The translations under genes and the position numbers were made by a program. Under the pieces are notes generated by a model, which was given only the letters and a program-made list of their open reading frames with translations, did not search any database and was not told the origin of the DNA. Below, in pieces: positions 30,052 through 62,254 of a stretch of 64,000 bases of DNA (positions within the stretch are counted from its first letter, which is position 1; each line of letters starts with the position of its first letter). Source of the stretch: a virus; IMG/VR virus record IMGVR_UViG_3300040801_001572, positions 50,655 through 114,654 of that record, one strand, 5' to 3'.

Positions 30052-30711
30052 ATGATCTACATTGTTTATAAAACAACAAATACTGCTAACGGAAAAGAAT
30101 ACATCGGATGCCATAAAACAAAAGACATTGACGATGGCTATTTAGGGTCCGGAAGATTGCTTCGAGAAGCAATAGTTAAATACGGCATAGATTCTTTTCG
30201 TAGAGAGATTATTGCTATATTAGATAGCGAAAAAGAAATGTTTGCGTTAGAAGCAAGTATTGTTGATCGAAATTACGTCGATAGAAACGATACATATAAT
30301 TTAACATTAGGTGGCCATGGAGGATTCTCTCATATATCGAAAGAATCTATGTTAGAGAGAAACTTGCAAATTAATTCACATCGTGATTACGAGTGTGAAC
30401 TTTACAAAGAAAATTTAAAAGCATCTCTTGCTACTGTAGACTACAGCGAAAGAAATAAGCGAAGAAGAGAAACGTTAGTTAATCGATATGGCTGCGTTCC
30501 TTCTTCGTTTAAAGGCAGAGAGCATACTGATGAATCAAAGAAGAAAATTGGTTCGGCAAATTCAAAACACCAGCAAGGCACCGGCAACAGCCAATACGGA
30601 ACTTGTTGGATATACAATTTGCATCTAAAGAAGAATCAGAAAATTCCTAAATGCGATCTTGATGCGTGGCTAGATAAAGGCTGGCACAAAGGTCGTAAGC
30701 TAAAATTTTAG
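30052..30711 (+). CDS. GIY-YIG homing endonuclease
   Basis: IVYKTTNTANGKEYIG, YLGSG, NUMOD3-like HTDESKKKIG. Confidence 0.9.
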   Translation: MIYIVYKTTNTANGKEYIGCHKTKDIDDGYLGSGRLLREAIVKYGIDSFRREIIAILDSEKEMFALEASIVDRNYVDRNDTYNLTLGGHGGFSHISKESMLERNLQINSHRDYECELYKENLKASLATVDYSERNKRRRETLVNRYGCVPSSFKGREHTDESKKKIGSANSKHQQGTGNSQYGTCWIYNLHLKKNQKIPKCDLDAWLDKGWHKGRKLKF

Positions 30712-30782
30712 GGGGTGCCATATGGGATGGACTTTGCACTTGCACTGCGAATGGCGGGGATCGTTACCCCGTTCCTCCACCA
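30711..30782 (+). tRNA. tRNA-Ala(TGC)
   Basis: G3:U70; ctTGCac loop; CCA. Confidence 0.8.
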
Positions 30783-30788
30783 AATTAT

Positions 30789-30865
30789 GCCGATGACGCG
30801 TCCTGGGGGACCAACACGACTGTCTATCGTGTGCATGGCGGGTTCGATTCCCGTCTTCGGCGCCA
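30789..30865 (+). tRNA. tRNA-Asp(GTC)
   Basis: CACGA-ctGTCta-TCGTG; G73; CCA. Confidence 0.8.
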
Positions 30866-30935
30866 AACATGATATGTACTTTTCCGTTAGTCAGCTACTC
30901 CAGTAGCCGAGAAAATGCCTCTATCAACTTTTTAT

Positions 30936-31023
30936 GCCCCGGTAGGCGAATTGGTATAGCCAGCAGGCTGAGAACTTGCGTCCCTCTGTAGACTTGTCGG
31001 TTCGAGTCCGACTCGGGGCACCA
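30936..31023 (+). tRNA. tRNA-Leu(GAG)
   Basis: Cloverleaf with long V arm; CCA. Confidence 0.9.
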
Positions 31024-31076
31024 TCTTCATACTAGTTTATTGTGCTGTACGAAAACTAGTTTATTGTGTTAAAAAT

Positions 31077-31152
31077 GTGTGCGTGACAGAATGGCTAATG
31101 TAGCGGATTGCAACCCCGTTTTTTGCTGGTTCGATTCCAGTCGCACACTCCA
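31077..31152 (+). tRNA. tRNA-Cys(GCA)
   Basis: ttGCAac loop; U73; CCA. Confidence 0.88.
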
Positions 31153-31160
31153 AATTCCAT

Positions 31161-31234
31161 GCCCGGTTAGTTTAATGGAAAAACATCTGTGTTACATACA
31201 GAAGACGTTGGCTCGATTCCAGCACTGGGTACCA
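31161..31234 (+). tRNA. tRNA-Val(TAC)
   Basis: TCTGT-gtTACat-ACAGA; CCA. Confidence 0.88.
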
Positions 31235-31240
31235 AACAAT

Positions 31241-31318
31241 GGGGGGTGAGCTAGTCTGGTGATTCAGCGTCCGCCTGAAGAGCGGAAGAACTTGGTTCGA
31301 TTCCAAGACCCTTCACCA
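31241..31318 (+). tRNA. tRNA-Phe(GAA)
   Basis: TCCGC-ctGAAga-GCGGA; CCA. Confidence 0.85.
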
Positions 31319-31362
31319 AATATAGATATTTCCGACTAAATACAAATTTAGGAGGAGATATC

Positions 31363-31731
31363 ATGGCAGTAAATCAAATACCGAGCAAACATGCTTTTGC
31401 TTTTACAGTAACTGACACCGCTGGTGTAGAACATAAACTTTGGTGGGATCTAGTGCAAAGTGTATATTTTGCATGGGAAACCGGAGTGTTCCTTATACAC
31501 CTAGACGACGGTGTTTACAAGCGTATCGCCGCGGCCGACCTGTACCCAGAATCACAAGCTCCAGAAGGGCGATATGTGAAATTGGTAAACGATTGTCGTA
31601 GTACGTTTAATGAAAAGATTTCTAGCATGTTTCTTACTGCAGAGTTAGGTGAACACCCAGTCGATGACGAAGCATTTGATGCACTAGTCACCGGACTAGT
31701 GTGGGATCCTGAAGCACAACAGTTCAAATAA
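31363..31731 (+). CDS. Hypothetical late protein
   Basis: TAAATA promoter and AGGAGG SD. Confidence 0.7.
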   Translation: MAVNQIPSKHAFAFTVTDTAGVEHKLWWDLVQSVYFAWETGVFLIHLDDGVYKRIAAADLYPESQAPEGRYVKLVNDCRSTFNEKISSMFLTAELGEHPVDDEAFDALVTGLVWDPEAQQFK

Positions 31732-31732
31732 C

Positions 31733-31816
31733 GCGGGCTGCAGGCTAACTGGCGTAGCCGACGGGCTTCCACCCCGTTCCGAAAGGTTCAGAGTTCGATT
31801 CTCTCAGTCCGCTCCA
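31733..31816 (+). tRNA. tRNA-Gly(TCC), 8/4 fold with V arm
   Basis: 8-bp acceptor GCGGGCTG/CAGTCCGC; 4-bp T stem; CCGAAAGG V hairpin; U73; CCA. Confidence 0.8.
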
Positions 31817-31822
31817 ATTTTT

Positions 31823-31896
31823 GCGTGTGTAGTATAATGGTATTATGCTAGGTTGCCAGCTTAGTGATGCAGGTTCGATTCCTGTCACCCGCACCA
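31823..31896 (+). tRNA. tRNA-Gly(GCC)
   Basis: ttGCCag loop; CCA; A discriminator. Confidence 0.85.
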
Positions 31897-31902
31897 AACA
31901 AT

Positions 31903-31973
31903 GGGTCGTTGCTCTGGGAGCAAATTGGATTCCAAACCCAATGAGGAGGGTTCGAAACCTTCACGGCCTGCCA
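31903..31973 (+). tRNA. tRNA-Trp(CCA)
   Basis: ttCCAaa loop; very short D loop; G73; CCA. Confidence 0.8.
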
Positions 31974-32035
31974 ATCATGCACATATAAGTCGGTAGGTAC
32001 GTTGATCCTGACTATATCACTGTGCACTAAATAAT

Positions 32036-32088
32036 GCCCCGGTAGTGTAATGGCCATCACGCTTGACTGTCTATCAGGAAACCGGAGT
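32036..32088 (+). pseudogene. Truncated tRNA-Asp(GTC) 5' fragment
   Basis: Acceptor 5' strand, D arm and CTTGA-ctGTCta-TCAGG intact; breaks at T loop where the HNH promoter begins. Confidence 0.75.
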
Positions 32089-32104
32089 AAAGATAAATAG
32101 TATT

Positions 32105-32812
32105 ATGAATTATACAAGAATTTATAATGCTATTATTTCGAGAGCAAAAATGCGTCCGGTTTTAGAAGGATACGCCGAAAGGCACCACATAATTCCTAGA
32201 TCATTAGGCGGCACAGACGATTTAGATAATCTAGTTATGTTAACAGCCAAGGAGCATTTTATATGCCACCTGCTTTTAGCTAAGATGTACGAGAAAAATT
32301 CTGTGGAATGGCAAAAGATGACCAAGGCATTGATGATGATGCGAGCGTCTGGTAATGCACATGACAGATATACGTCGGCAACATACGAGTATTTTAAAGA
32401 GGCGTTTTCCGAAGCACAGAGTTATGCACAACGAGGCAGTCGAAATAGTAGTTATGGAACTCGATGGATTCACAGTTTAGAATTTAAGCAATCTAAAAAA
32501 ATCTGTAAAAAGGCACCTTTGCCTGATGGCTGGAACGAAGGCAGAATTATTGACTTTGAAAAACATGCCTCTGCTATGATGAAGAAAAAGTTATTAGAAG
32601 ATCAACAAGCAGAATGGGTTGCCAGGTTAGGCATAATATTAGAATATTATAGAGATAACGATATTTCCATCAGGGCGTTGTCGAAAAAGTTTAATGTAAA
32701 CGGTAACATTTATAAGCAGTTTGAAAAATATTACCCAGAAGAATATCGAGATATTGTGATGGATAAGCCTCGCAATAGCAACAAAGGAAAAGGTAGATAT
32801 ATGCCTGCGTAG
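32105..32812 (+). CDS. HNH homing endonuclease
   Basis: ERHHIIPRSLGGTDDLDNLVMLTAKEHFICH. Confidence 0.92.
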   Translation: MNYTRIYNAIISRAKMRPVLEGYAERHHIIPRSLGGTDDLDNLVMLTAKEHFICHLLLAKMYEKNSVEWQKMTKALMMMRASGNAHDRYTSATYEYFKEAFSEAQSYAQRGSRNSSYGTRWIHSLEFKQSKKICKKAPLPDGWNEGRIIDFEKHASAMMKKKLLEDQQAEWVARLGIILEYYRDNDISIRALSKKFNVNGNIYKQFEKYYPEEYRDIVMDKPRNSNKGKGRYMPA

Positions 32813-32878
32813 CTCAATCGGGAGAGCACCGGCCTGTCACGTCGGAGGTAGTGAGATCGAAACTCATCGCAGGCGCCA
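32803..32878 (+). tRNA. tRNA-Asp(GTC)
   Basis: CCGGC-ctGTCac-GTCGG; G73; CCA. Confidence 0.9.
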
Positions 32879-32951
32879 AATTACTTAAACGGAGAATGTA
32901 TGTTCAACACTAGTTAAGCACTTCTTATTCATGGAATAAGGAGGTGCTATT

Positions 32952-33176
32952 ATGAACAGAGCACAATATATGACTCCTGAGCAAAAAGCTCTTTGGGAGT
33001 CCGCTGAAAAGCGTGAGGGTCGCAAGATTAAAAGGACCCACGAGAACTGCCGCAAAATCCTAGGCCGTTACATTACGGTCAAGGACAATGCGGGAAACAA
33101 AACCCGCGTGTTTCGCCCTGGCGTGGCGAGACCTGGCAAGACTGCGCGAGATCGCGCAAGGAGGCGCGGGAAGTAA
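32952..33176 (+). CDS. Small basic protein with hairpin-sequestered RBS
   Basis: AAGGAGGT SD lies in the 3' arm of hairpin 32917-32948. Confidence 0.7.
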   Translation: MNRAQYMTPEQKALWESAEKREGRKIKRTHENCRKILGRYITVKDNAGNKTRVFRPGVARPGKTARDRARRRGK

Positions 33177-33183
33177 AAACAGA

Positions 33184-33274
33184 GGAGGGTGATCCTGTCT
33201 GGGACAGGCGTGGTCTTGAAAACCAATGGAGGGTAGAAATATCCTTGCAGTTCGATTCTAGCCGCCCTCTGCCA
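33184..33274 (+). tRNA. tRNA-Ser(TGA), Sec-like scaffold
   Basis: 8-bp acceptor; 6-bp D stem; ctTGAaa loop; long V arm; G73; CCA. Confidence 0.8.
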
Positions 33275-33277
33275 AAT

Positions 33278-33489
33278 TGCGTCGGTGTCTTCCATGCTTA
33301 ACTTTTAGCGAAGTGAGGGGAGACGAACGTATAGCTTGTACGAACGGTGTCCTAACGCTGCGCCACGTTTCTCGCTATTCGTTAGGTGTCAAGCTTAAGA
33401 AGCGGCCAACAAAACAGGTTATTTCGGGCAGGGCAGAGACGAGCGTAACCCCCGAATGACTTGGGCAGGAGTTGCGACCTGTCGACGCA
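33278..33489 (+). ncRNA. Unknown ~210-nt structured RNA
   Basis: Closing stem TGCGTCGG/TCGACGCA; GC-rich; no credible ORF. Confidence 0.45.
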
Positions 33490-33497
33490 CTTATTAG

Positions 33498-33547
33498 CCG
33501 TCCTGATGATGACTTAGAGGAGTCGAAACACCACATGGTGTAGGCGG
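33498..33547 (+). ncRNA. Hammerhead ribozyme (type I)
   Basis: CCGTC-CTGATGA-t-GACT(tagagg)AGTC-GAA-ACACC(acat)GGTGT-A-GGCGG; GUA cleavage triplet. Confidence 0.85.
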
Positions 33548-33599
33548 AGTAGAAGCGTAACTGTAAATGATAAATAAAGTAGTCGGTAAAGGCTACTTT

Positions 33600-34379
33600 A
33601 TGAATTATGAAAAAATTTACAGTTCTTTAATAGAAAGAAGCAGACATAGAAAACTCTCAGGGTATGTCGAAAGGCACCATGTTGTTCCTAGGTGTCTCGG
33701 TGGAACTGACGACGCTAGTAATATCGTCGAACTCACTCCAGAAGAGCACTATTTGGCTCATCAACTACTAGTCAAAATGTATCCAAAATCTTCGCCTTTA
33801 GTTCGAGCTGCTCAGATGATGGTACCGAACCGCCCTTCTAATAAATTATACGGCTGGGTCAGAAGACGATTTGCTAAAATTCAAAGCGAAACGCAATCCG
33901 GTAGAGGTAATACCCAATTTGGTACTATGTGGATCTTTAATGAGGAACTTAAGGAATCTAAGAAGATACCGGTTAACTCGGAAATACCGAAAGGTTGGGA
34001 AAAAGGCCGAGTTGTAAAATTTGATGAGAAGTTTAGAGAAAGGCGCGAAACTGAGCAGAACAGAAAACCTCGTGTATTATGTTCGGAAAGAGAGAAGAAA
34101 TTAAGACGCATTAAGTCTAAGCATAGAAAAATAAGAAGATCAGAGAAATATATGTCTGCAAAAACAAAAAAACTTTATTTAGAGTTTCTTTCAGCAGATT
34201 TGTCATTAAGAAATTTTGCAAAACAAAAAGGCATAGTGCCGATGACACTTTCTAATTGGTTTAATAAGTATATCGATGAGTATGATATAATACCCAGAAC
34301 CAAAGCAAACAAACAATTAGGGGCGGACGTATCCTTGGGAGATACAACAGGTTGTAACCCTGTCGCGAAGGCTAGGTAG
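33600..34379 (+). CDS. HNH homing endonuclease
   Basis: ERHHVVPRCLGGTDDASNIVELTPEEHYLAH. Confidence 0.92.
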   Translation: MNYEKIYSSLIERSRHRKLSGYVERHHVVPRCLGGTDDASNIVELTPEEHYLAHQLLVKMYPKSSPLVRAAQMMVPNRPSNKLYGWVRRRFAKIQSETQSGRGNTQFGTMWIFNEELKESKKIPVNSEIPKGWEKGRVVKFDEKFRERRETEQNRKPRVLCSEREKKLRRIKSKHRKIRRSEKYMSAKTKKLYLEFLSADLSLRNFAKQKGIVPMTLSNWFNKYIDEYDIIPRTKANKQLGADVSLGDTTGCNPVAKAR

Positions 34380-34403
34380 GTTCGATTCCTACCCGCCCCA
34401 CCA
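34320..34403 (+). tRNA. tRNA-Tyr(GTA)
   Basis: ACAGG-ttGTAac-CCTGT; V arm; CCA. Confidence 0.85.
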
Positions 34404-34538: not shown

Positions 34539-34557
34539 TTTATTTTATAGAAACAAT

Positions 34558-36604: not shown

Positions 36605-36667
36605 CCCTTGGGGCAACATCTGCCCAGTGTACGAATACAAATGCAGTGTGTTCGAATAAATAGTGTT

Positions 36668-37291
36668 ATGTATTACACGATTTATAAAATCACCAATCAA
36701 ATCAATGGCAAGCAATACATTGGTGCGCATAAGACCACAGATTTAGAAGATGATTATATGGGCTCGGGGAAGCTATTAATCCGAGCTATTGAAAAGTACG
36801 GCATAGAAAATTTCAGTAAAGAAATTTTAGCTGTATTTGATTCTGCAGAAGAGATGTTCTCACTTGAAAAAGAACTTGTGAACGAAGAGTACGTTAATAG
36901 AAACGATACTTATAATTTGACAAAAGGAGGCTCCGGCGGTAATCGACTTTTACCGGGAAATTCGACTTGGTCATCCGAGCATTCTAAAATGATGACAGAG
37001 AAAAGATTAAAAATTTATACCGAAGATGAACGACGTGAATGGTCTAGAAAAGGCGGCCTGGCAATAAAGAAAAAAGGCACTGGTATATTTTCTCCGGAAA
37101 ACAAAAGAAACAAGGGTAAGCCCCATTCCGAGGAGCACAAGAGAAAGATAGGAAAGGCAAATTCTGTGTCTCAGAAAGGATCTAAGAATTCTCAGTATGG
37201 AACTAGGTGGATTACCAATGGAATTCTTAATAGAAAAATTAAAAATGGCGACTGTATTCCGGAAGGTTGGGTATATGGTCGTACACGATAG
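36668..37291 (+). CDS. GIY-YIG homing endonuclease
   Basis: TIYKITNQINGKQYIG, YMGSG, HSEEHKRKIG. Confidence 0.92.
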   Translation: MYYTIYKITNQINGKQYIGAHKTTDLEDDYMGSGKLLIRAIEKYGIENFSKEILAVFDSAEEMFSLEKELVNEEYVNRNDTYNLTKGGSGGNRLLPGNSTWSSEHSKMMTEKRLKIYTEDERREWSRKGGLAIKKKGTGIFSPENKRNKGKPHSEEHKRKIGKANSVSQKGSKNSQYGTRWITNGILNRKIKNGDCIPEGWVYGRTR

Positions 37292-37364
37292 GCCCTTAGC
37301 TTAATGGTTAAAGCGTCGGACTCTGACTCCGAATATATCTGTTCGACTCAGATAGGGCCCGCCA
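37290..37364 (+). tRNA. tRNA-Gln(CTG)
   Basis: TCGGA-ctCTGac-TCCGA; G73; CCA. Confidence 0.9.
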
Positions 37365-37782: not shown

Positions 37783-37822
37783 AATTATTACAAGTAGTCA
37801 AAGTAAACAACTAAATACGCTT

Positions 37823-38479
37823 GTGAAATATTATATTTTATACAAGACTACCAACTTAATAACAGGCCAATATTATATAGGTAAACACGAGACAGACAAT
37901 TTAGACGATAATTATCTGGGCTCAGGGCTGCGGTTAAATCGTGCAATCAAAAAATACGGTAAAGAGAATTTTAAAAAAGAAATTCTTTGTTTTCTAGAAA
38001 ATTCGGCAATATTAAACGATTCAGAAAAAATGTTAATAAATGAGCACTTGGAAAATCCGAAATGTTATAATTTAGCACCCGGAGGCCAAGGAGGCCACGT
38101 GTATGCTCATTATACAGAAGAAGATAAGAAAAACATTTATGCTAAGATTAGCAAAACTTTAAAAAGAAAGAAAATCGCTCCACCGAGGCCCGACCTAAAG
38201 GGCAGAACACTGTCCGACGAACACAAGAGGAAGATTAGCGAATCACAGAAAGGTCGCAAAAAGCCCACTAGGTCAGCTGAACACTGTAGGAATATTAGTA
38301 AATCTCTCAAGGGTAAGAAGCTAAGTAAAAACATGAAGCTTCGTCTGTCAAACAAAATGAAACAGAATCATGCCAACCATAAAGAATTAACTTGTCCCCA
38401 CTGCATGAAAAATGGAAAAAGTGGATCTATGTATAGATGGCATTTTGATAACTGCAAAAATAAGCGCGGGTTAGAGTAG
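37823..38479 (+). CDS. GIY-YIG homing endonuclease with NUMOD3 repeats
   Basis: ILYKTTNLITGQYYIG, YLGSG, LSDEHKRKISES, CPHC..RWHFDNCK. Confidence 0.92.
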   Translation: MKYYILYKTTNLITGQYYIGKHETDNLDDNYLGSGLRLNRAIKKYGKENFKKEILCFLENSAILNDSEKMLINEHLENPKCYNLAPGGQGGHVYAHYTEEDKKNIYAKISKTLKRKKIAPPRPDLKGRTLSDEHKRKISESQKGRKKPTRSAEHCRNISKSLKGKKLSKNMKLRLSNKMKQNHANHKELTCPHCMKNGKSGSMYRWHFDNCKNKRGLE

Positions 38480-38538
38480 TGGTTACTCATGGGTCTCATA
38501 AGCCCACTAGGTCGGTTCGATTCCGGCACCCGCTACCA
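38465..38538 (+). tRNA. tRNA-Met(CAT), initiator-like
   Basis: CGCGGG start with C1 mismatch; ctCATaa loop; CCA. Confidence 0.85.
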
Positions 38539-38798: not shown

Positions 38799-38841
38799 AA
38801 TTCATTTGCATTGTTGTTCCAGAGAGTGTATAATTCCCCCT

Positions 38842-39765
38842 ATGGATCCTGCAATTTTATTTTTTGTTTTAGGCTTTATTGCAACACTACTGGGTAGCAA
38901 TATACGTTTTCCGGAATCAACTGCAAAGGCAGTTAGTCTTTACTTGCTAATCGCAATCGGCTATAAAGGCGGAATGTCGATGGCAACCGCTGCACTGAGT
39001 TATTCAATGGCAATGTCACTAGGACTTGCTTTAGCTGCTAGCGTTGTTGTTCCGTTAGTCGCATATCTGTTGCTAAGAAAATTAGAAAAACTCGAAGATG
39101 CTGTGAGCATTGCAGCAACATATGGTTCGGTTAGTGCAGTGACGTTTGTCACAGCCGTTGCATTCTTAGAGGCAGCAGGCATAGTGTTTGGCGGTTACAT
39201 GGTAGCAGCACTGACTGTGATGGAAGCACCTAGTATTGTAATGGCACTACTACTTTATAACCGAAGCACTAGTGAAAGCAAAACTTCACTGAAAGAGTTA
39301 GGTAGAATTATCTTTGCAGAAAAAAGCATTGCTATCTTGTTAGGTAGTATGTTTATCGGATATTTTGCAGGTGCCGAATACCAATTAGCACTAGCAATTA
39401 AAGGTGATATTTTTAAATTTGCCCTTTGTTTATTTTTGTTAGACATGGGCGCAAAGGTTGGTGAACGTTTCCGAGTAACAAAAACACTTGAAATTCATAA
39501 TGTTCTTTTTGCTCTGTTAATGCCAATTACAGCAAGTATTACCATGCTGTTAGTGGCTAGTATGTTATCACTTCCGGTAGGTAATGCTTTGTTGCTTGCA
39601 ATACTGGCAGGATCAGCAAGCTATATTGTTGTTCCGGCCGTTATGCAAGAAGCTATGCCTGATGCAGATCATGCAAAATATTTTACAATGAGCCTAGCTA
39701 TCACTTTTCCGTTTAACGTAATTGTTGGCATACCTGCTTATTACTATTTGTTGCTGTTGCTATGA
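38842..39765 (+). CDS. sbtA: Na+-dependent bicarbonate transporter family (SbtA/DUF897) membrane protein
   Basis: DPAILFFVLG, AIGYKGG, AATYGSVSAVTF, LLDMG, SASYI, LAITFPFN; TTGCAT-N17-TATAAT promoter 7 nt before ATG. Confidence 0.88.
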   Translation: MDPAILFFVLGFIATLLGSNIRFPESTAKAVSLYLLIAIGYKGGMSMATAALSYSMAMSLGLALAASVVVPLVAYLLLRKLEKLEDAVSIAATYGSVSAVTFVTAVAFLEAAGIVFGGYMVAALTVMEAPSIVMALLLYNRSTSESKTSLKELGRIIFAEKSIAILLGSMFIGYFAGAEYQLALAIKGDIFKFALCLFLLDMGAKVGERFRVTKTLEIHNVLFALLMPITASITMLLVASMLSLPVGNALLLAILAGSASYIVVPAVMQEAMPDADHAKYFTMSLAITFPFNVIVGIPAYYYLLLLL

Positions 39766-40102: not shown

Positions 40103-40354
40103 GCGATATACACAGGAAAGCCTCCCTGTTGTGAGCAGGGCAAAGCGCCTGCAGTCACTATCGCAAATTTTTCAGAGGAAAGTCAGGACACGGCGGAAGC
40201 CAGGTGGGAGACGAAAGTCGCTAGAACCACAAGATACGAAAGCGCCGTGCAACACAAACAGTCCAGAGATAAGCTTCAATTGTAGACGGACGGGTAGTGG
40301 CACTAGATGAATGACGGTTGAAAAAACAGAATCCTGCTTACGTAGAACCGTCGC
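40103..40354 (+). ncRNA. rnpB: RNase P RNA, compact
   Basis: GAGGAAAGTCAGG (40175) and ACAGAATCCTGCTTA (40326) P4 halves with compensatory change; AGATGAATGAC; GCGAT/GTCGC terminal pairing. Confidence 0.88.
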
Positions 40355-40362
40355 TGAAACTT

Positions 40363-44360: not shown

Positions 44361-44466
44361 GGGCGTATAGTTTGAATGGATAAAACGACAGGCTCCACAC
44401 CTGTAGATCCGGAGCGGAAGCGCTGCAGAGCTGAAGCTAATGGTTCGAGTCCCGGTGCGCTCGCCA
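44361..44466 (+). tRNA. tRNA-Trp(CCA) with ~30-nt insertion in T stem
   Basis: ACAGG-ctCCAca-CCTGT; G73; CCA; extra segment splits the CCGG|G T-stem strand. Confidence 0.7.
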
Positions 44467-44532: not shown

Positions 44533-44609
44533 AATCTTGACCTCTGATTAGAAATGCACTATGCTGATAAATATTGTGTAACTATTACACAAATACAGAG
44601 GTTGACACA

Positions 44610-45758
44610 GTGCTTAAAAGAGTATGTGGACCAATACTTATAATATTTTCTACTGTGTCTGTTGCACAAATGGACACAGAGTACTACAAAGGTTCTGCTT
44701 TAGATAGGCAAAATCGTATACTGCAATATCAGGTAGCGCTAGAGCAAGCAGAGCGAACTGGCGGCGCATATTCTTCAGATCTTGGCGAAATTTTGTTAGG
44801 ACTCGGCAGGGTTTACCAAGAGTTCGGCGAGCACGAAGATGCAATTACAATCTTCAAAAGATCAGCACACCTTACTAGAATCAATGAAGGCCTAAATAGC
44901 GAAGGACATCTAGCAGCATTAGAAGAGCTATTAGAAAGTTATCTGCAGACAGGTGACATTGCTCATGCGGATGACATTAGAAACAGAATGTTTCGAGTAC
45001 AACGAAATCTGTATCCGATAGACAGCAACGAATATTTAGATGCAATGACTGAATATGTGCAATGGCAACAAGTTGCATACCGTTACAAATTTGGACCACG
45101 TACATATGCTCGACTTTTGTCAATTGAAGAGTTAGACAAAGAAGCATCGCAGTCGCACCCCGATCTAACAATTGAACGTTTTTATAATTGTTACTTGGTT
45201 AAAGCATACAAAGGCGAGCCTGTTCCAAAAATGCAAATAAGCGTAAATGGACAAGGCGGCCAACAAGATAGAAATGCAGATGTCGATTGGCACAAATTTA
45301 GAGCATTTGGTAGACACGTATATCAAAACGGTGTGAAAATGCTCGAAGAATACATTGACCAAGAACAAGACGATCTGAAAAGAGCACATGCATTAGCGTT
45401 GCTAGGCGATTGGCAGTTGTGGAACGGTAAGGTAGCGACTGCTAAAAAATTATACCTCGAGGCTTATGCACTGGATAATACGCTTTTTGAGAAACCCACA
45501 CAGATCCCACCAGAGGATGTGTATGCTGATGTTGACTATATTGTGCCCGCAGTAGAGCACGAAGTCGAAGTCCGCTTTACTGTGAGATCAAACGGACGAC
45601 TCAGAGATGTAACTGCAGAAGAAACAGAAGAAAACCGATCGGCCAGAATACGTGCACTCAAAGATGTGCGTAGATGGAGATTCCGTCCTAGGATTGAAAA
45701 CGGTGAAATAGTCGACACAGCAGATGTCGTTGCCCGTTACAAAATCTACCAAGATTAA
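44610..45758 (+). CDS. Secreted TPR + TonB C-terminal domain protein
   Basis: Signal peptide; TPR-like helices; VRFTVRSNGR..WRFRPRIENG. Confidence 0.75.
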   Translation: MLKRVCGPILIIFSTVSVAQMDTEYYKGSALDRQNRILQYQVALEQAERTGGAYSSDLGEILLGLGRVYQEFGEHEDAITIFKRSAHLTRINEGLNSEGHLAALEELLESYLQTGDIAHADDIRNRMFRVQRNLYPIDSNEYLDAMTEYVQWQQVAYRYKFGPRTYARLLSIEELDKEASQSHPDLTIERFYNCYLVKAYKGEPVPKMQISVNGQGGQQDRNADVDWHKFRAFGRHVYQNGVKMLEEYIDQEQDDLKRAHALALLGDWQLWNGKVATAKKLYLEAYALDNTLFEKPTQIPPEDVYADVDYIVPAVEHEVEVRFTVRSNGRLRDVTAEETEENRSARIRALKDVRRWRFRPRIENGEIVDTADVVARYKIYQD

Positions 45759-45836: not shown

Positions 45837-45880
45837 AATAAAATATTGCAAACTGAAGATAAGCTTGCTAATATGTTATC

Positions 45881-46084
45881 ATGACTATGCATACTGATTT
45901 TAGGCGCGGCCAGAAAATCTTTGTGATTTTTAAAGACGGTTCGCAGCTAGTCGATTCCTATGTCGAAAGCAAAAGCCAGCATATTTTTTTACGAAAAACA
46001 GGAAAAATTCCTGTGAAAAGAATTAGATCGATTACCATATATAAGACGCCTCCGAGATCGTTGCCCCATTCGTCTACTGGCTAG
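45881..46084 (+). CDS. Small hypothetical protein
   Basis: ORF after promoter-like sequence; ends inside tRNA-Glu. Confidence 0.55.
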   Translation: MTMHTDFRRGQKIFVIFKDGSQLVDSYVESKSQHIFLRKTGKIPVKRIRSITIYKTPPRSLPHSSTG

Positions 46085-46137
46085 GATACTGCATTCTCAG
46101 TGCAGTGAAGAGAGTTCGATTCTCTCATGGGGTACCA
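46063..46137 (+). tRNA. tRNA-Glu(CTC)
   Basis: CTGCA-ttCTCag-TGCAG; CCA. Confidence 0.9.
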
Positions 46138-47251: not shown

Positions 47252-47683
47252 ATGAAAGTATATGTAACGACAGAAGAAAGCTGCTACGACTCATATTTAA
47301 GTTCAGAGCCTTATGGTGATTGGTACGAGCACTGGGACTGCAGAGTCAATGAGGTTTACATACAAAAGGAAGCTGGCCACTATTACGCAGACTCCTTTGA
47401 ACTAGGTGACGTAGATCTAAAATCCGGTTCTCCTGTGTTTGTACTTGTAATGCACTACGACACAGGCGACAGCTTTGGTCGTGCTACAGGTAAAATGGAA
47501 GTACTTTGGGTGTTTGACAATTACCAGGATGCAAGTGATGCTCGCAAAGCTGTTGAAGCTAATCAGGAAGAGTTTTCTGTGAAGTTCGAAACTGCACGTG
47601 GTGAGATAAAAATGAGCAACCCGGGCGCAGGCTATTTCGAAAGCGTAAACAATATCGACATAGTTGATCGCATTTTACGATAG
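47252..47683 (+). CDS. Conserved phage hypothetical protein
   Basis: YDTGDSFG..GYFES motif, also in 52925-53320. Confidence 0.7.
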   Translation: MKVYVTTEESCYDSYLSSEPYGDWYEHWDCRVNEVYIQKEAGHYYADSFELGDVDLKSGSPVFVLVMHYDTGDSFGRATGKMEVLWVFDNYQDASDARKAVEANQEEFSVKFETARGEIKMSNPGAGYFESVNNIDIVDRILR

Positions 47684-47759
47684 GGGTGTCGCCAAGTCTG
47701 GTTAAGGCAACGGGTTTTGATCCCGTCATGCGCAGGTTCGAATCCTGCCACCCCCGCCA
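47682..47759 (+). tRNA. tRNA-Gln(TTG)
   Basis: ACGGG-ttTTGat-CCCGT; CCA. Confidence 0.92.
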
Positions 47760-50063: not shown

Positions 50064-50668
50064 CTGTGTTAGTGTTAGTGTATGACAAAACTGTACAAAA
50101 AGATAGACAGACTGATAGATCTAGTCGACACAGCAAAGCATTCCAGTTATGGTGTTACATATTGGCAAAGAGGTGATGGTTCGAGGTATCGAGAGCCAAA
50201 CTGGATACATTGCGAAACAGGTCGCGCAGCAGATGCATTTGAAAATATTCGAGCAGTAAGCCCCGGGCATCGTAGATTAACAGTGAGGGGTGAATTTGTG
50301 TCCGATGGTTACGACGACGCTATTATTGCAAAGGGTATCATATTCATTCTTCGAACTGAAAGCAAAATACAGTTCGGGACACTGAGTTTGTTAAGAAACT
50401 CGGATATATGGAAAGCCAAATATGAAGATGAAGATTAGAGAAACAGATTGGTTCAAGCGCAGACTGCCTACCCCACAACCAAAGGCAATAGATGTCAAGG
50501 TGCATAACTTGGTACTTGAGCAAAACCATATGTGTAAAATGACAGCATATTATGATGATGGTTCTGTGTTTCAACTGAATGCAAGAGTCAATCAAAATGA
50601 TATCAAAGGTACATGGACAGTGCACGGTATTGATCATTTAGGACACAGTGTACTGGTAGATATAGTCG

Positions 50669-50890: not shown

Positions 50891-51295
50891 TGGCATACGC
50901 AATTTTCGTTAAAGGCGAAAAATGGAAGTACCGTTATACTGAACGAGGAACTCCAGTTCAGTTTAACAGTTCTTTCGATGCAGCGGATTGGTTAAGCAAT
51001 AAGCAGATGATCTGTAGAGCATATCGTCCACACCAGCTGATACAGGTAGATACTATGTCTCGACTTGAAGATTTAATGGAGATCGGCGCGAAGCGCATTG
51101 ATGCCACAATTGAGGCCGTGATTGAAAAGAACGAAAGCGAATGGGAAACAGGCAAAACGCTTGAACTGCAACCGTTCTTGGATAAGCACCTGGCAGGCTT
51201 GCCTGACTATGCGGATATTCCGAGCATGGAAGATCGTCAAACAATGGCAGCATCACAACCTACCTAGGTTCGGGATTCTGCTTGCTAAATAACGT

Positions 51296-51703
51296 ATGAG
51301 TGAGCCCAAAACATATAATTGTTTGTCTTGTGGCAAAGAAAATCTGTGGAAAGGACATAGTTACAGAAACAAATACTGCAACAATGAGTGCCAGCACGAT
51401 TACCAGCATCGTGAACGAATCAAGATTTGGTTCGAAACAGGACAAATAGGAGCTCATGTAGCAAAACGTTACTTACTCGAAAAGACAGGCTGTTGTGCCA
51501 TATGCGGCATAACAAGTTGGAATGAAAAAGAGATTGTTTTTGATCTTGACCATATCGACGGAAACAGTCAAAATAATAGACCCGAGAATTTGAGATTATT
51601 GTGTCCTAATTGTCATTCGCAAACAGACACATATAAGGCTCGCAACACGGGAAATGGCAGACACGCTAGAAGGCAGCGTTATGCTAAAGGAAAAAGTTTT
51701 TAA
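51296..51703 (+). CDS. HNH endonuclease
   Basis: CAICG..LDHIDGNSQNNRPENLRLLCPNCH. Confidence 0.92.
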   Translation: MSEPKTYNCLSCGKENLWKGHSYRNKYCNNECQHDYQHRERIKIWFETGQIGAHVAKRYLLEKTGCCAICGITSWNEKEIVFDLDHIDGNSQNNRPENLRLLCPNCHSQTDTYKARNTGNGRHARRQRYAKGKSF

Positions 51704-51704: not shown

Positions 51705-51980
51705 GCCGGTATAGCTCAGCAGGTAGAGCAACTGACTTGAAAAGACGAGTGCTCCGAAGGAAACTTTGGAAGTAGAACTCCTCAAATTCGGGGAAACCTT
51801 TAACATGGCAATCCCGAGCGAAGCCCGGAAGGGAACGTGTAGAGACTTGACGGGGAGCAGCTAAGTCGTTAGATACGCTGAAGAGAAAGTCCAGACCACA
51901 AACGGTAAATGCCGGCAACGAAAGTTGTAGTTGGTAAGGTAATCAGTAGGTCCCGTGTTCGATTCATGGTGCCGGCACCA
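51705..51980 (+). tRNA. tRNA-Thr(TGT) interrupted by a group I intron (exons 51705-51738, 51939-51980)
   Basis: Spliced ACTGA-ctT|GTaa-TCAGT; body resembles proteobacterial tRNA-Thr(UGU); CCA. Confidence 0.9.
51739..51938 (+). mobile_element. Group I self-splicing intron, 200 nt, no ORF (IC3-like)
   Basis: P AAATTCGGGGAA, Q AATCCCGAGC, R GTAGAGACTTGACG, S AAGAGAAAGTCC; P1 with U-G at 5' splice site; terminal G. Confidence 0.9.
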
Positions 51981-56372: not shown

Positions 56373-56495
56373 TGTGTAGCTGATCCATTCCGATCAGTAA
56401 GACCACCAGATCTTTCAAATGCTGGAAGGGGAACCTAAGCCTCTCCTCGGGCCTGATTTAATGCGGGGAGACAGATCCGGTAGCTAAATAAGTGC

Positions 56496-57116
56496 ATGTC
56501 ACTTATACCAGACAATCAGTTGTGTGATTCCGGCTGTGGAGAACTTGCAAAGTATTTTAGCGAAGGCACAGGGAGATACCGATGTCGAAAGAGCGCTAAC
56601 AGTTGTCCTGCTAATCGAAAAAAGAATAGTCAGGGCCTTACTAAAGCTCACGCATCTGGTAAAATGAAAATTTTTACAAAAGAGGATCGACATAAAAGTC
56701 ATGTTTCTCACAGAAGAAAGCTGGTTGCATCGAAACCGTTTGAGCAGCTTGGCTATCGACTAAGAAAAAAGATTGTATTAGAAGATCAGGATTATAGGTG
56801 TTTGCATTGTGGCATTAGCGAATGGCAAGGTATACGTATAACGTTAGAGCTTGACCATATCGACGGTAATCGTTATAATGACAAACGTGAGAATTTGCGC
56901 TGTCTTTGTCCAAACTGTCACAGCATCACTGACACATGGAAAGTCGGTAGTGTTAAGAAAACAGGCAAGCGCAAATGTACAGATAAAGAGATTGTGAAAG
57001 CATTTGAAAATGCAGGATCGATCAGCGGAGCACTCAAGGAACTCGATATGAATTGGGGCTCCGGAGAAACTGTTAAGAGAGTTTTGTATCAGCAGGGACT
57101 AATTGACAGTTTGTAA
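56496..57116 (+). CDS. HNH endonuclease
   Basis: CLHCG..LELDHIDGNRYNDKRENLRCLCPNCH. Confidence 0.92.
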   Translation: MSLIPDNQLCDSGCGELAKYFSEGTGRYRCRKSANSCPANRKKNSQGLTKAHASGKMKIFTKEDRHKSHVSHRRKLVASKPFEQLGYRLRKKIVLEDQDYRCLHCGISEWQGIRITLELDHIDGNRYNDKRENLRCLCPNCHSITDTWKVGSVKKTGKRKCTDKEIVKAFENAGSISGALKELDMNWGSGETVKRVLYQQGLIDSL

Positions 57117-57929: not shown

Positions 57930-58008
57930 CCGGGTGTAGCTCAGTCTGGTTTAGAGCGCTCGCTTTGGGAGCGAGAGGTCCTCAGTTCGAATCCGAGTAC
58001 CCGGACCA
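57930..58008 (+). tRNA. tRNA-Pro(TGG)
   Basis: CTCGC-ttTGGga-GCGAG; CCA. Confidence 0.92.
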
Positions 58009-58446
58009 ATTCAACTTGTTGCTCTTACGACGATTTTCAGATCTAGTAAGATACTGCAAGTTATCCTGATGATGTAGGCCACCTCTGCTAATTGGTATGA
58101 TGTGGTCTACTTCATAACCCTCCGGACAATTTTCATATATTTCTTGAATTAACGCACGGTCTGCATCGTCCGGCGTCTGTGCTTTTTGACGAGCGTGATA
58201 TCTTTGCCATGCTTCGTTTTGGATAGCACGATTTCGTTTGTGCCATTTTTCATCTTTAGGAACTCGGCTAGCAATTTGGGCACATTTATGCGAACAGTAT
58301 TGGTTAGTTGATTGGTGATACATCTCTTTCTCAACACCACAGACCTTGCAATTGAATTTAGGTTTTTCTCGACCACAGAATTTAACATGCATAGAAAGTC
58401 CTTGCGTGTTTTTGAATTCTTTTTGGCATTTATTACATGTGTGCAT
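57982..58446 (-). CDS. HNH endonuclease (antisense, ends inside tRNA-Pro)
   Basis: EVDHIIPISRGGLHHQDNLQYLTRSENRRKSN; TAAATA-N5-ATG. Confidence 0.9.
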   Translation of the reverse strand: MHTCNKCQKEFKNTQGLSMHVKFCGREKPKFNCKVCGVEKEMYHQSTNQYCSHKCAQIASRVPKDEKWHKRNRAIQNEAWQRYHARQKAQTPDDADRALIQEIYENCPEGYEVDHIIPISRGGLHHQDNLQYLTRSENRRKSNKLNWSGYSDSN

Positions 58447-60159
58447 GTGACTATTTACCTCAGCCTGGTAGCGCAGAATAAACTTCTTGACCATCACTGT
58501 CCTTTTTTTATATGCTAGTTTTGCGACGGCAAGGTAGCGAGAGCGCTCTAAGTGCAAACAGCTTCGATGTCCTTTATGGATAATGGGCGGGTGCAGGCCG
58601 GGGGGAAAATACCTCTATGCAACAGCATATGTACCGGGGTCCTAAGACCAGTGTCGCCGCACAAATTAACGGAGAGTGCAATGACAACAGAAACAATACA
58701 AAAATATATACCTTATGCACTCTCATTGGAAAAATTGCACAGTCTCCCGACACCTCGGCTCTTAGCATATTACAAGAAGTACCGTTGGGTGCGACATTAC
58801 GGTGTGGAAATCTTAAACGAAAGAGATAAAACTGTTAATCAGCTTGCAAACGAGTACATGGACGCAATCAAAGAGATACTAGACAGCCGTGAGCATGTTG
58901 CCTGAAGAAACCACACTTCGAAAGCTGCAAGGTCGCTGCTACGACACTGACATCGATGTCGACACAGTGCAGATAGATGATATCTATTCTAGTGACTATC
59001 CAGATTTTTCCGATGCGTTTGTGCTCGAAGCAAAATGGAAAGACGGCACAGCACTCACTGAGGAAGAACTAAGGCAATTCAACGAACTGGAACAAACAAA
59101 GTATCTAATCAGCGAACTGATACACGAGAATGTTCTGTACCTATGAAAAATCGCGATCCAGAAAGAATCTTCGATGGACTTTGGTCACACGATGATGTAG
59201 CGGTTGCTCTCCAAAGGCTAATCGACTCGAGGAAAGTAAAGCGAGAAGATCTTGTAGAGTGTCCAGGCGAAGCACACGAACTGGACTGCACTTTTAATCC
59301 AGGCAGCCAAGGACCATACGGTCCGGGATATCATCACTGCGACTATTGTGATGATGCTGGGTGGATCACAGAGGAATGGGAACTCGAAATAAGAGATTGG
59401 GAAGCCGAATGCAAGAGACAGGCCGAGCAAAAGAGAAAGGAAGCTCAGCGTGAACTCGAGCAACTAAAGATTGTTGAGAAACTGAAATCAGGCCCGAGGC
59501 AAATACATGGTTAAGGTAAAGATAATAAATTCTTGCGAGCACACCGGTGTAAAGGCAGGTGAAGTATACGAGGCCAAGCGATACCATTTAGACCCCGGCA
59601 AGTATATACTGGAGCGCAGAATACCAGATGGCCACGATCCAATGTGCACAGAATATGCATACAATGTGGCCCTGTGGATGGGCCCACCAGGGCACAAGAA
59701 GTGGATGCAGATCGTAGACAATACATACGTGGAGCTCGAAGAATGACAATGGACGAAATTGTCAGTGTGCTGGTAGCTCGCTATCGACCTCTTGCAAAGC
59801 AGCTAGGCACTTCAGGACGTGAGCGACTCGAAAACATGCTAGATATTCTAGAAACAAATTCGCATGACTGGCCAGTTGACAAAACACACCGTTGGATAGG
59901 ATTTATACAAGGTGCACTTTGGGTAAGCGATCTAATCGACGTTGACGAAGAAAGAAATTTCACCCGCCCGCTTTTCCATCAGTTTTACCGTAAGCTCGGT
60001 CTTGAAATACCTGACTCTGTCGATGTAATGAACAGTGATCTGAGCCGTTGACAAACTTTGCAATTTTGCTAAACTATTGATGCGGTGAATTGGTTTGCTT
60101 CGCATCTTACGACCTACGCATTCTAACGAGTGTGTTGGCGTTGCAGACTTTTACATCGT

Positions 60160-60245
60160 GTTGCCTATGTTGGATAGGAACCAGCAGGCTGTTGCAAGGT
60201 CTGTGTGTACCGGTTCGATTCCGGGCAAACCTCTAGGCAACCCAA
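60160..60245 (+). ncRNA. tRNA-like element (Cys-like loop, no CCA)
   Basis: GTTGCCTA/TAGGCAAC closing stem; D-like arm; CCGG-TTCGATT-CCGG T arm. Confidence 0.5.
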
Positions 60246-60455
60246 ATTCGAGGACAGGAACAATGGAACACAGTGACTTTAAAATTAACGGTATCTTCTA
60301 CACTGCCACAGGCGAATGGTACTGCACTGACATCGGAACAAGAACAGTGATTGCAGTCAAGGTTGTTCCTGGTCAGCGTATCAGTGACGGCGAAGAAGTT
60401 GTGTTCGATGAATTTGACTTCGGTGGTTGTCGCCTTAGTGCGTTTGAGGACTAAC

Positions 60456-61007
60456 ATGAAATATTTTGCGACTCTGCTTGTTGTTCTAGTTACAGCATGT
60501 TCCGGTCAACCGGGTCCCCAAGCAACAGTATGGCATCCGGACGAAAATGAATCTCTGCTAATGGATGCCAAGCAACGCATTGTAATCAGCACAACACGAA
60601 ACGATCAGCATGTGATCTGCGCAGAACCAGTTCCAGATGTAGTCAGTTCGGTCAATACTGATTTTGGGTTTGATGCAAACATCGGCCCAGCACTGAGCAG
60701 AGCCGGTGCCGCAGATATTGGCCGAACTGCTGACGAGACTGTGACCAATCTAGGCAAGCGAACACAGAGCGTACAACTGTTACGAGATGGCCTGTATCGT
60801 GCATGTGAGGCATACGTCAACGGACTGCTCGACGAAGAAGATTATCGCCGTATTTTGGTGAATTACGACGAGATTCTTGTAGCCCTAACAGCTATTGACG
60901 CACTGGGAAATCACACGGGCAGCAACGACGCTGTGATAGCAATTGAGGAACTAGTGAAGACCTACTTCTGCTTGCACAACGATTTAGAAATTTGTACACC
61001 GGAGTAA
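60456..61007 (+). CDS. Putative lipoprotein
   Basis: LVTAC lipobox; CAEPVPD..QLLRDGLYRACEAYVNG. Confidence 0.7.
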   Translation: MKYFATLLVVLVTACSGQPGPQATVWHPDENESLLMDAKQRIVISTTRNDQHVICAEPVPDVVSSVNTDFGFDANIGPALSRAGAADIGRTADETVTNLGKRTQSVQLLRDGLYRACEAYVNGLLDEEDYRRILVNYDEILVALTAIDALGNHTGSNDAVIAIEELVKTYFCLHNDLEICTPE

Positions 61008-61491
61008 CTGTGTCAGAATACACATTTTTCTACCCCATGCTTGGCAAGTGTGAATTGCTATCAGTGTGGCACAAAGGTAAGCGTGGTCAGAAACCGATTC
61101 GCTATCTATTTAAATATGTCGAACCAACAAACACAGAATTTCATCAGCCGGGTGATTTGTTTTTGTTTTACTTCGATTTCGATCCATATGGCCTAGGCGA
61201 CTTTGCAGGTATGCCAGGTATGTCGATGGCGCAGATACAAACTATCGACATTACTGGAATGCTAAGTGATGGTGCACGATTCGTGACGCCTGAGCACATT
61301 AGGCAGCGTGGTTATAACTATTACCTGATGGATGTTGCTGCTGATGAGTTGGATATGCAATTTCAGAGTGACTTCCATGGCTGGCTAAGGCACGACCCGA
61401 TGATATTGGGCAGTGATAATTTACATCAAAAGTACAGCACAGCAGGTAAGAAATTCGTACAGGGGCCCAACGGTTTCTGTGTTTAAGTTAC

Positions 61492-61545
61492 GGGCCCATA
61501 GCTCAGTTGGTTAGTTAGTTAATTAGAGGTTAAAGCACCTTACTA
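61492..61545 (+). pseudogene. tRNA 5' remnants upstream of endonuclease
   Basis: GGGCCCATAGCTCAGTTGGTTAG then GGTTAAAGCAC; no anticodon or T arm. Confidence 0.65.
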
Positions 61546-61567
61546 CGCAAGAGATAAATAAACATGT

Positions 61568-62200
61568 ATGTTTATTTGTCCATATTGCCAATCTAAAAGA
61601 AAAAGCCAAAACTCACTTACCCAACATCAGATACGATGTAAGAAGAACCCAAATCATATTGAAGTTAAACCTTCTTACGGAATGTCCGGAAAGAAAGGCG
61701 CCAATCAATATACGTATGGTGCAAAAATGTCCGAAGAGACAAAAAGAAAAATATCTAAGGCTAGTTCAAAGCAGACCTGGGATAGAGAACGAAGAAAGAA
61801 ACATTCTAAACGAATGAAGCAAGCAGTCGAGGAAAATCCAAATTCCTATACTAAAAATAATGTAGTTGGCAGGGTCCGTAATATCGAATATAAAGGTAAA
61901 ATACTGAAGGGAACCTGGGAGCTAAGAACTGCCAAGTGGTTAGACTCACAACATGAAGTATGGAACAACGAAGTAAGCCCTCAGGTTTATTTTTGGAACG
62001 ACAGCGAGCATTTATATTATCCTGATTTTTATTTACCGGAACATGATCTTTATATTGAAGTCAAGGGGTATAAAAGAGAGAGGGATGAGGCGAAATGGTC
62101 GCAATTTAACGGGACTCTTGTTATAATTGACAAGAGTCTTATTAATAGGCTCGAAAAATATACGATACTAGAGATTCGCCCCTATAGCTTAGTGGCCTAA
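61568..62200 (+). CDS. PD-(D/E)XK homing-type endonuclease with Zn finger and NUMOD3
   Basis: GTWE, YYPDFYL, YIEVKG; MSEETKRKIS. Confidence 0.88.
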   Translation: MFICPYCQSKRKSQNSLTQHQIRCKKNPNHIEVKPSYGMSGKKGANQYTYGAKMSEETKRKISKASSKQTWDRERRKKHSKRMKQAVEENPNSYTKNNVVGRVRNIEYKGKILKGTWELRTAKWLDSQHEVWNNEVSPQVYFWNDSEHLYYPDFYLPEHDLYIEVKGYKRERDEAKWSQFNGTLVIIDKSLINRLEKYTILEIRPYSLVA

Positions 62201-62254
62201 AGCACTCCGCTCATAACGGATTGATCCTTCGTTCGAATCGAAGTAGGGGCACCA
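62178..62254 (+). tRNA. tRNA(CAT), Met or lysidine-Ile2
   Basis: ctCATaa loop; CCA. Confidence 0.88.

Follow-up and report, generated by a model that had tools for sequence, protein, structure and literature searches.

The transfer RNA (tRNA) array of an uncultured jumbo myovirus, contained in the 64,000-nucleotide (nt) stretch of IMG/VR record IMGVR_UViG_3300040801_001572 analysed here (positions 50,655 to 114,654 of the record; hereafter the window), carries nine endonuclease genes: three SegB-like GIY-YIG genes, five HNH genes and one NUMOD3 nuclease gene. Six of these nine, corresponding to six of the eight lying on the same strand as the tRNAs, have their stop codon within the next tRNA gene. 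This overlap is specific to endonuclease genes. We consider it probable, at roughly 0.65, that the overlap chiefly reflects the construction of these selfish elements and the sites at which they insert. A consequence for nuclease expression, through cleavage of the shared transcript by RNase P, is plausible.

Endonuclease genes cross the 5' end of the downstream tRNA

The window is the right-hand end of a 114.6-kb contig whose source is a jumbo myovirus, with a portal protein sharing 57% identity with its counterpart in Pseudomonas phage PA5oct and with genes for a tail sheath and a major head protein. The stretch was found in four DNA sequencing runs, all belonging to one microbial-mat study, and no RNA run was among them. 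ARAGORN predicts 41 tRNAs between 29.1 and 63.5 kb of the window, every one on the plus strand. All nine endonuclease open reading frames (ORFs) have Pfam and/or PHROG matches, and the true starts of five of them lie at 30052, 32105, 33600, 36668 and 37823. For each ORF ending near a tRNA, a stop offset was derived from the ORF list and a script run on the ARAGORN calls by counting the last base of the stop codon from tRNA nt 1. A first-pass annotation of this DNA had named six endonuclease ORFs and two other ORFs as ending inside the downstream tRNA. All eight stop positions were correct by this procedure, and all six named endonucleases are homing-endonuclease-like by Pfam and PHROG. For the stop at 30711, the annotation had identified the last base of the TAG as G1 of tRNA-Ala; the codon does end inside this tRNA, but nt 1 is A30710 and the G is nt 2. 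It also missed three further HNH genes, two of which stop outside the tRNA and one of which is antisense: the last 27 nt of this minus-strand gene (cassette 9) run antisense to tRNA-Pro 57930-58008, across its T arm and acceptor end.

The frequency of overlap was determined for ORFs of at least 80 amino acids (aa) ending anywhere from 40 nt upstream of a same-strand tRNA through the tRNA 3' end. The dereplicated set of junctions comprised the whole contig and 52 IMG/VR uncultured-phage loci (numbered with the prefix L) fetched with two of the window nucleases, and nuclease class was assigned by phmmer and PHROGs. Across all loci, 24 of 29 endonuclease ORFs overlap a tRNA versus 4 of 41 other ORFs (Fisher p = 4e-10). 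The excess is present on this contig (6/8 versus 1/12; p = 0.004) and in the other loci taken alone (18/21 versus 3/29; p = 1e-7), and nucleases unrelated to the query that had fetched their locus overlap as well (six of seven). The comparison of nuclease with other tRNA-adjacent ORFs that the first-pass annotation had proposed thus yields a nuclease excess. The other ORFs cluster just outside the tRNA, with eight ending at exactly -1, two at 0 and most of the remainder at -3 to -10, and this uniform packing limit at -1/0 is consistent with a genuine penalty for ORFs that extend past the RNase P site. Six ordinary ORFs of the window (ending at 31731, 36146, 40019, 45758, 53511 and 63426) share one arrangement, in which TAA and a single pyrimidine are followed by tRNA nt 1. 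The ORFs ending at 37291 and 47683 share a TACGAT/AGG junction; homology was considered as its source and rejected, as the two proteins are not homologous.

The stops that nuclease ORFs find within tRNAs are unevenly distributed among the three frames (15/5/4), favouring the frame in which U8-A9-G10 is read as TAG at +10 (p = 0.01). This bias to an early TAG suggests that termination on uncleaved transcripts also matters. The tRNA-Ala downstream of cassette 1 points the same way, toward in-tRNA termination being used: its A1 is unique among 14 distinct tRNA-Ala and makes the sole stop in the frame of that cassette. This tRNA, at 30710-30782, is called by ARAGORN only, has an odd T loop, and was not recovered by Rfam even at E<=1; Rfam scores of 49-64 bits were obtained for five of the eight overlapped tRNAs. 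The A1 of two tRNA-Gln was considered as a similar special feature and rejected, as other phage tRNA-Gln likewise begin with A or U. The T loop ATCGTTA (versus TTCGAAT) of the window tRNA-Ala is also found in a tRNA-like gene just upstream of the SegB-like cassettes in L002 (~900-945) and L004 (~2985-3030), and the nuclease-free allele in L001 has the T loop TTCGATT. ATCGTTA may be a variant that escapes SegB-type T-loop recognition.

Cassette architecture, probable insertion sites and content of the array

Eight of the nine nuclease genes are preceded by a TAAATA box at a distance of 4-7 nt from the start codon, five of them with the exact spacing N5-ATG, and no Shine-Dalgarno sequence is present in these genes. 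The TAAATA-N5-ATG arrangement occurs 12 times in the window versus 0.8 expected; 11 of the 12 sites open an ORF, and five of these ORFs are nucleases. Structural genes have the TAAATA box 17-64 nt upstream, together with normal Shine-Dalgarno leaders. The box resembles the T4 late promoter, in which a TATA box of 8 bp occupies the -10 position (PMC2988020). Its spacing in the nuclease genes would place the start of transcription at about the A of the ATG, from which we infer leaderless late transcripts. Non-nuclease ORFs behind the same arrangement include a GNAT-like gene (40458), a KTSC-domain gene (62918) and several of unknown type. A sigma-70-like promoter (TTGCAA-17-TAATAT, 45843-45883) is positioned 6 nt before the ATG of the 67-aa ORF 45881-46084, apparently a second kind of leaderless arrangement.

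These features suggest that nine free-standing homing-endonuclease cassettes colonised the array, each cassette probably consisting of the late-promoter-like box and an ORF followed by the tRNA, without spacer, 3' untranslated region or terminator, and some sitting beside what would be the leftover fragment of a tRNA that they displaced. With nothing between ORF and tRNA, the reading frame continues to the first stop supplied by the tRNA itself, in very many cases the TAG of the universal U8-A9-G10. Related loci illustrate this geometry. Nearly all of 50 IMG/VR relatives of the GIY-YIG nuclease of cassette 4 (GIY4) lie in tRNA arrays just after a tRNA, and many independent relatives stop inside differing downstream tRNAs. 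A single nt separates tRNA-Ser from tRNA-Met in L002, where the element is absent from the site; in L001, which is syntenic, exactly this gap is occupied by a SegB-like cassette whose TAG lies at +15 of tRNA-Met. The L001 cassette is composed of a hairpin, TATAAATA, a Shine-Dalgarno sequence and an ORF without a stop of its own, and a cassette of this type also precedes tRNA-Cys in L002 and L004, where the stop is at +4. In L052, a gene like that of the cassette 6 nuclease (END6) lies, together with a complete tRNA-Met, between both recognisable halves of a split tRNA (2880-2970 and 3680-3730), and this resident tRNA has a CCA (Trp) anticodon and is broken after the anticodon loop. Three END6 relatives in other loci also stop inside tRNA-Met or tRNA-Ile. 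Within the window, the HNH gene of cassette 2 (HNH2) follows a tRNA-Asp(GUC) 5' fragment and runs into a complete tRNA-Asp, and END6 follows a truncated tRNA 5' end; fragments of resident tRNAs were not seen flanking the three GIY-YIG cassettes. Insertion junctions, which the first-pass annotation had offered as the alternative to its own proposal, thus explain the geometry directly, by compact cassettes butted against a tRNA or travelling with one. The antisense overlap of the HNH gene with tRNA-Pro shows that geometry alone can produce overlaps.

Several observations weigh against this reading. The 3' halves of the two displaced tRNAs are absent nearby, as judged by a search for 3' acceptor strands complementary to 32036-32089 and 61492-61514. 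No close relative of the phage without the cassettes was found, so that insertion within the window is argued by analogy with the other loci. The loci behind the pooled overlap counts were ascertained by homology to two window nucleases, and junctions of the same family are not fully independent. A cassette that travels with its tRNA is clear only for the END6 family and HNH2, the tRNAs downstream of SegB-like relatives varying widely. Finally, the step involving RNase P and transfer-messenger RNA (tmRNA), considered below, is a prediction from known biochemistry. Searching the array outside its tRNAs with blastn-short for tRNA fragments gave nothing significant, no loci related through the TPR/TonB_C protein at 44574-45758 or the HNH gene at 33567-34379 were found, and megablast against cultured phages returned single tRNAs only. 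Contigs of the four DNA runs gave only low-depth pieces, and their joints were rejected as cassette-free alleles: these joints have sides of <=30 nt and derive from tRNAs of other organisms.

Table 1. Positions of the cassettes, tRNA genes and associated elements within the window; numbers with a plus sign in the last column are stop offsets.
Feature	Position	Strand	Details
Cassette 1, SegB-like GIY-YIG	30041-30711	+	box 30041-30046, ATG 30052, TAG 30709-30711; PF19835 28.6 bits (cut-off 25), phrog_314 3e-40; C-terminus KGWHKGRKLKF matches T4 SegB
tRNA-Ala(UGC)-like	30710-30782	+	A1.C72, G3.U70; cassette 1 stop covers nt -1 to 2 (+2)
tRNA-Asp(GUC) 5' fragment or mini form	32036-32089	+	directly before HNH cassette 2; Rfam 25.7 bits, below threshold
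Cassette 2, HNH (HNH2)	32094-32812	+	box 32094-32099, ATG 32105, TAG 32810-32812; PF01844 26.7 bits, phrog_655 9e-45
tRNA-Asp(GUC)	32803-32878	+	ARAGORN, Rfam 59.6 bits; cassette 2 stop is U8-A9-G10 (+10)
Cassette 3, HNH	33571-34379	+	box 33571-33576, hairpin, ATG 33600, TAG 34377-34379; PHROG match only, phrog_655 1e-49 over residues 11-239
tRNA-Tyr(GUA)	34320-34403	+	ARAGORN; Rfam match only to the tRNA-Sec model, 33 bits; first 60 nt covered by cassette 3 ORF, stop in T stem (+60)
Cassette 4, SegB-like GIY-YIG (GIY4)	36657-37291	+	box 36657-36662, ATG 36668, TAG 37289-37291; PF19835 26.1 bits (cut-off 25), phrog_314 4e-49
tRNA-Gln(CUG)	37290-37364	+	A1.C72; ARAGORN, Rfam 63.7 bits; cassette 4 stop covers nt -1 to 2 (+2)
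Cassette 5, GIY-YIG	37812-38479	+	box 37812-37817, GTG 37823, TAG 38477-38479; phrog_314 1e-46, NUMOD3 22.5 bits, PF19835 16.8 (under cut-off 25)
tRNA-Met(CAU), initiator-like	38465-38538	+	ARAGORN, Rfam 49.5 bits; cassette 5 stop is nt 13-15, D arm (+15)
Truncated tRNA 5' fragment	61492-61514	+	acceptor strand, U8A9, D arm; before cassette 6; read from sequence
Cassette 6, NUMOD3 and endonuclease (END6)	61555-62200	+	box 61555-61560, ATG 61568, TAA 62198-62200; phrog_15137
tRNA-Met(CAU)	62178-62254	+	ARAGORN, Rfam 62.9 bits; cassette 6 stop is nt 21-23, D loop (+23)
Cassette 7, HNH (HNH7)	51286-51703	+	box 51286-51291, ATG 51296, TAA 51701-51703; no overlap, TAA-C then tRNA; PF13392 28.8 bits, phrog_10822 3e-25
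tRNA-Thr(UGU) with 200-nt group I intron	51705-51980	+	ARAGORN with introns allowed; Rfam RF00028 54.5 bits
Cassette 8, HNH (HNH8)	56485-57116	+	box 56485-56490, ATG 56496, TAA 57114-57116; 8 nt short of tRNA-Leu 57125; PHROG match only, phrog_10822 2e-25
Cassette 9, HNH	57982-58457	-	box 58452-58457, ATG 58446, TGA 57982-57984; PF13395 25 bits, phrog_1271 2e-14
Non-nuclease ORF, 67 aa, no known family	45881-46084	+	stop +22 in tRNA-Glu(CUC) 46063-46137
Non-nuclease ORF, 143 aa, with Shine-Dalgarno	47252-47683	+	TAG covers nt -1 to 2 of tRNA-Gln(UUG) 47682-47759 (+2)
TAAATA-N5-ATG sites, examples	30041, 32094, 35094, 36657, 40447, 52211, 56485, 62907	+	
TAAATA-N5-ATG sites, examples	22383, 36514, 58457	-	
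tRNA-Sec-like gene and other tRNA-like elements	33184-33270; 30788-30862; 31903-31970; 44361-44463		Rfam

Rfam also detects one tRNA-Sec-like gene, one group I intron and a number of weak tRNA-like elements in the array. The tRNA-Sec-like gene is over the Rfam threshold (48.5 versus 47), and the tRNA-like elements missing from the ARAGORN list score below or just at threshold. The intron splits tRNA-Thr(UGU) after position 36 of the anticodon loop, and a free-standing HNH gene abuts this tRNA on its upstream side. Between tRNA-Leu and tRNA-Thr, at 40144-40359 on the plus strand, is a weak full-model match to bacterial RNase P RNA class A that is only 216 nt long and scores 28.4 bits versus a gathering score of 100 (E = 3e-7 in a 501-nt search); a phage-borne minimal RNase P RNA, if real, would bear directly on the processing of the tRNA array. 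No tmRNA gene was found on the 114.6-kb contig. CUA-anticodon tRNAs (amber suppressors, labelled Pyl by ARAGORN) are present in the arrays of two related uncultured phages (L014, 5202-5276; L033, 2219-2294). Two protein-coding genes inside the array, a full-length SbtA-type Na+-dependent bicarbonate transporter (38806-39765; PF05982, 1e-90) and a DUF2490 outer-membrane-like protein (62269-62901; 6e-42), may be auxiliary metabolic genes that hint at a cyanobacterium or another mat phototroph as host.

Consequences for expression and alternative explanations

The bases shared by ORF and tRNA leave no space for a terminator, so that the nuclease mRNA should double as the leader of the tRNA precursor. 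For six of the eight nuclease ORFs on the tRNA strand, the stop codon is located 3' of the RNase P site. When 60 nt of ORF leader are included in thermodynamic folds, the acceptor stems of the overlapped tRNAs form with a probability of 0.77-0.99, the doubtful tRNA-Ala excepted, and no alternative structure hiding the RNase P site is predicted; these tRNAs, again excepting tRNA-Ala, should be RNase P substrates. RNase P cleaves at tRNA nt 1, and stop-less mRNAs are rescued by tmRNA. With the stop 3' of the cleavage site and the tRNA able to fold, cleavage would leave a stop-less mRNA. Ribosomes that follow the polymerase and reach the tRNA before RNase P has cut would terminate normally, and later ones would meet a non-stop end, whereupon trans-translation would tag and destroy the product, keeping nuclease output low and transient. 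Ordinary genes of the array would escape this fate by stopping just outside the RNase P site. Such a consequence for the nucleases is plausible. The proposal of the first-pass annotation that tRNA maturation removes the nuclease stop codons is supported in part: the stops do lie 3' of the cut site, there is no room for a terminator, and the stems fold, but one of the nine genes is antisense and two stop outside the tRNA. The overlap may simply be tolerated, and selection for it is not indicated by the layout as it presents itself here.

That the overlap is itself selected as an expression governor, with competition between RNase P and ribosomes, non-stop mRNA and tmRNA tagging keeping a toxic nuclease of low specificity scarce, is a tentative possibility. 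The restriction of overlap to endonucleases, with ordinary ORFs halting at a -1/0 wall, is what it would predict, and the overlapped tRNAs fold normally. SegB, moreover, has relaxed specificity, cleaves the tRNA genes of T4 itself in vitro and can hardly be detected during infection (PMC2330249), and homing endonucleases are as a rule tightly controlled in T4 (PMC2988022). However, one overlap is antisense, where RNase P cannot matter, and two of the nine window genes, T4 segB (-5) and the Klebsiella phage Merci seg gene (0) do without overlap. The early-TAG frame bias implies that normal termination is in use, as does the tRNA-Ala A1 that creates the only stop in its frame. Extension of the governor to a general rule of phage tRNA arrays appears doubtful; by this rule ordinary genes stop at -1/0, and leaderless, stop-less nuclease cassettes are dosed by competition between ribosome and RNase P, yielding about one properly terminated protein per transcript with the rest non-stop and tagged, so that the overlap would be a selected and widespread governor and not an accident of packing.

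An improbable alternative holds that overlap serves retention, a shared or carried tRNA hindering clean loss of the nuclease and tying it to a resistant tRNA allele. All four members of the END6 family precede tRNA-Met or tRNA-Ile, HNH2 is paired with tRNA-Asp, and the altered T loop ATCGTTA both adjoins SegB-like genes in L002 and L004 and occurs in the window tRNA-Ala; promoters embedded in the T4 seg and mob genes are also thought to favour retention of these genes (PMC2988022). Against this, the downstream tRNA differs among SegB-like relatives, and because the shared bases belong to the tRNA they would survive a precise deletion of the ORF, so that overlap adds little protection. Completion of the stop codon as in mitochondria, whereby RNase P would leave a terminal U at the U/AG junctions (Ala, Gln and Gln) and polyadenylation would rebuild UAA, is very improbable. 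Three junctions of the window and a TA/G junction in L020 have the right geometry, but most overlaps (+4 to +60) are not rescuable by polyadenylation, and A1 is common in phage tRNA-Gln regardless of the upstream sequence. We know of no bacterial or phage precedent for completion of a stop by polyadenylation. It is just as improbable that tRNAs or ORFs were mis-called, or that TAG is not a stop in this phage: tRNA-Ala lacks Rfam support and tRNA-Tyr is weakly supported, but the Rfam scores of the five overlapped tRNAs given above, ORFs that match nuclease families along their whole length, and the use of TAG to terminate 11 of 72 long ORFs, with no CUA anticodon among the 41 window tRNAs of ARAGORN, argue against an artefact. 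Insertion of compact cassettes directly against tRNAs is the explanation that we favour.

Relation to known systems

Both the layout and the regulatory idea are already known, the former from T5 hegC and hegD and the latter from the 2008 proposal for SegB. New are the numerical contrast between nuclease and ordinary ORFs, the bias in stop frame and, for this phage, the distance from box to ATG. Our search of the literature on leaderless transcripts with TATAAATA promoters, and on RNase P, non-stop mRNA and tRNA overlap, found no paper describing the present layout. For annotation, the overlaps of endonuclease ORFs with tRNAs in phage arrays should be kept as genuine and not "corrected". For evolution, a quantitative rule is added to the published association of SegB with tRNAs, namely that nuclease ORFs cross the tRNA 5' end and others stop short of it. 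A dose cap imposed by tRNA maturation would, if true, constitute a new natural use of non-stop decay; if this idea fails, the layout still helps to flag mobile cassettes by which phage tRNA sets are remodelled.

The closest characterized relative of the window GIY-YIG nucleases is T4 SegB, a proven homing endonuclease of the T4 tRNA cluster that recognises a motif in the T loop of tRNA genes (PMC2330249). GIY4 is 42.7% identical to SegB over 99% coverage (tblastn, E = 8e-39), and the homologues share an MxYYTYKITN start and a PEGWxKGRKxKF end. Both T4 segB and the window GIY-YIG genes are placed between two tRNA genes with a TAAATA-type box upstream. They differ at each end: the leader of segB is 26 nt long and includes a Shine-Dalgarno sequence as well as a sequestering hairpin, whereas the window box is 5 nt from the start codon, and segB has its own TAA 5 nt before tRNA-Arg, with cleavage proposed just before that stop, whereas the window stops lie inside the tRNA. 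Maturation of the tRNA precursor was proposed in 2008 to cut segB mRNA at its stop and thereby lower expression, the same idea being cited for the T5 F-Tfl nucleases (PMC2330249), and a 2010 review restates it as processing by RNase E (PMC2988022). A 2026 paper reports SegB homologues to be widely tRNA-associated and mentions neither overlap nor stop codons nor RNase P (PMC13096335). In Klebsiella phage Merci, the stop of the seg gene is flush with the tRNA.

A similar logic of expression is found among other T4 endonucleases. I-TevI, I-TevII, I-TevIII and mobE, like the window nucleases, have a nuclease-specific late-type promoter just upstream of the ORF within a longer transcription unit, and in both systems read-through transcripts are probably poorly translatable (PMC2988022). 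In T4 a hairpin hides the ribosome-binding site, whereas the window nucleases have no such site and their leaderless state is suggested by spacing. Mitochondrial tRNA punctuation is alike in that ORFs abut tRNAs and tRNA excision sets the mRNA 3' end; there, however, polyadenylation completes the stop, whereas most window stops are located well within the tRNA, and its excision would remove them. A nuclease mRNA cleaved at tRNA position -1 would be expected to undergo bacterial trans-translation by tmRNA and SmpB.

The same overlap pattern as in the window is displayed by the HNH genes hegC and hegD (F-Tfl group) of T5, which in the RefSeq record end 14 nt inside tRNA-Ser2 and 23 nt inside tRNA-Gln2, respectively. 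T5.069 ends 24 nt inside tRNA-Asn, and other ORFs of the T5 tRNA region stop 0-20 nt short. HegC and HegD belong to different HNH subfamilies, with a weak relation to HNH7 and HNH8 of the window through hegA only, and tRNA-Gln2 is flagged as a pseudogene. With E. coli as host, T5 hegC and hegD provide a ready system for the 20-year-old idea that tRNA maturation caps the dose of a selfish nuclease.

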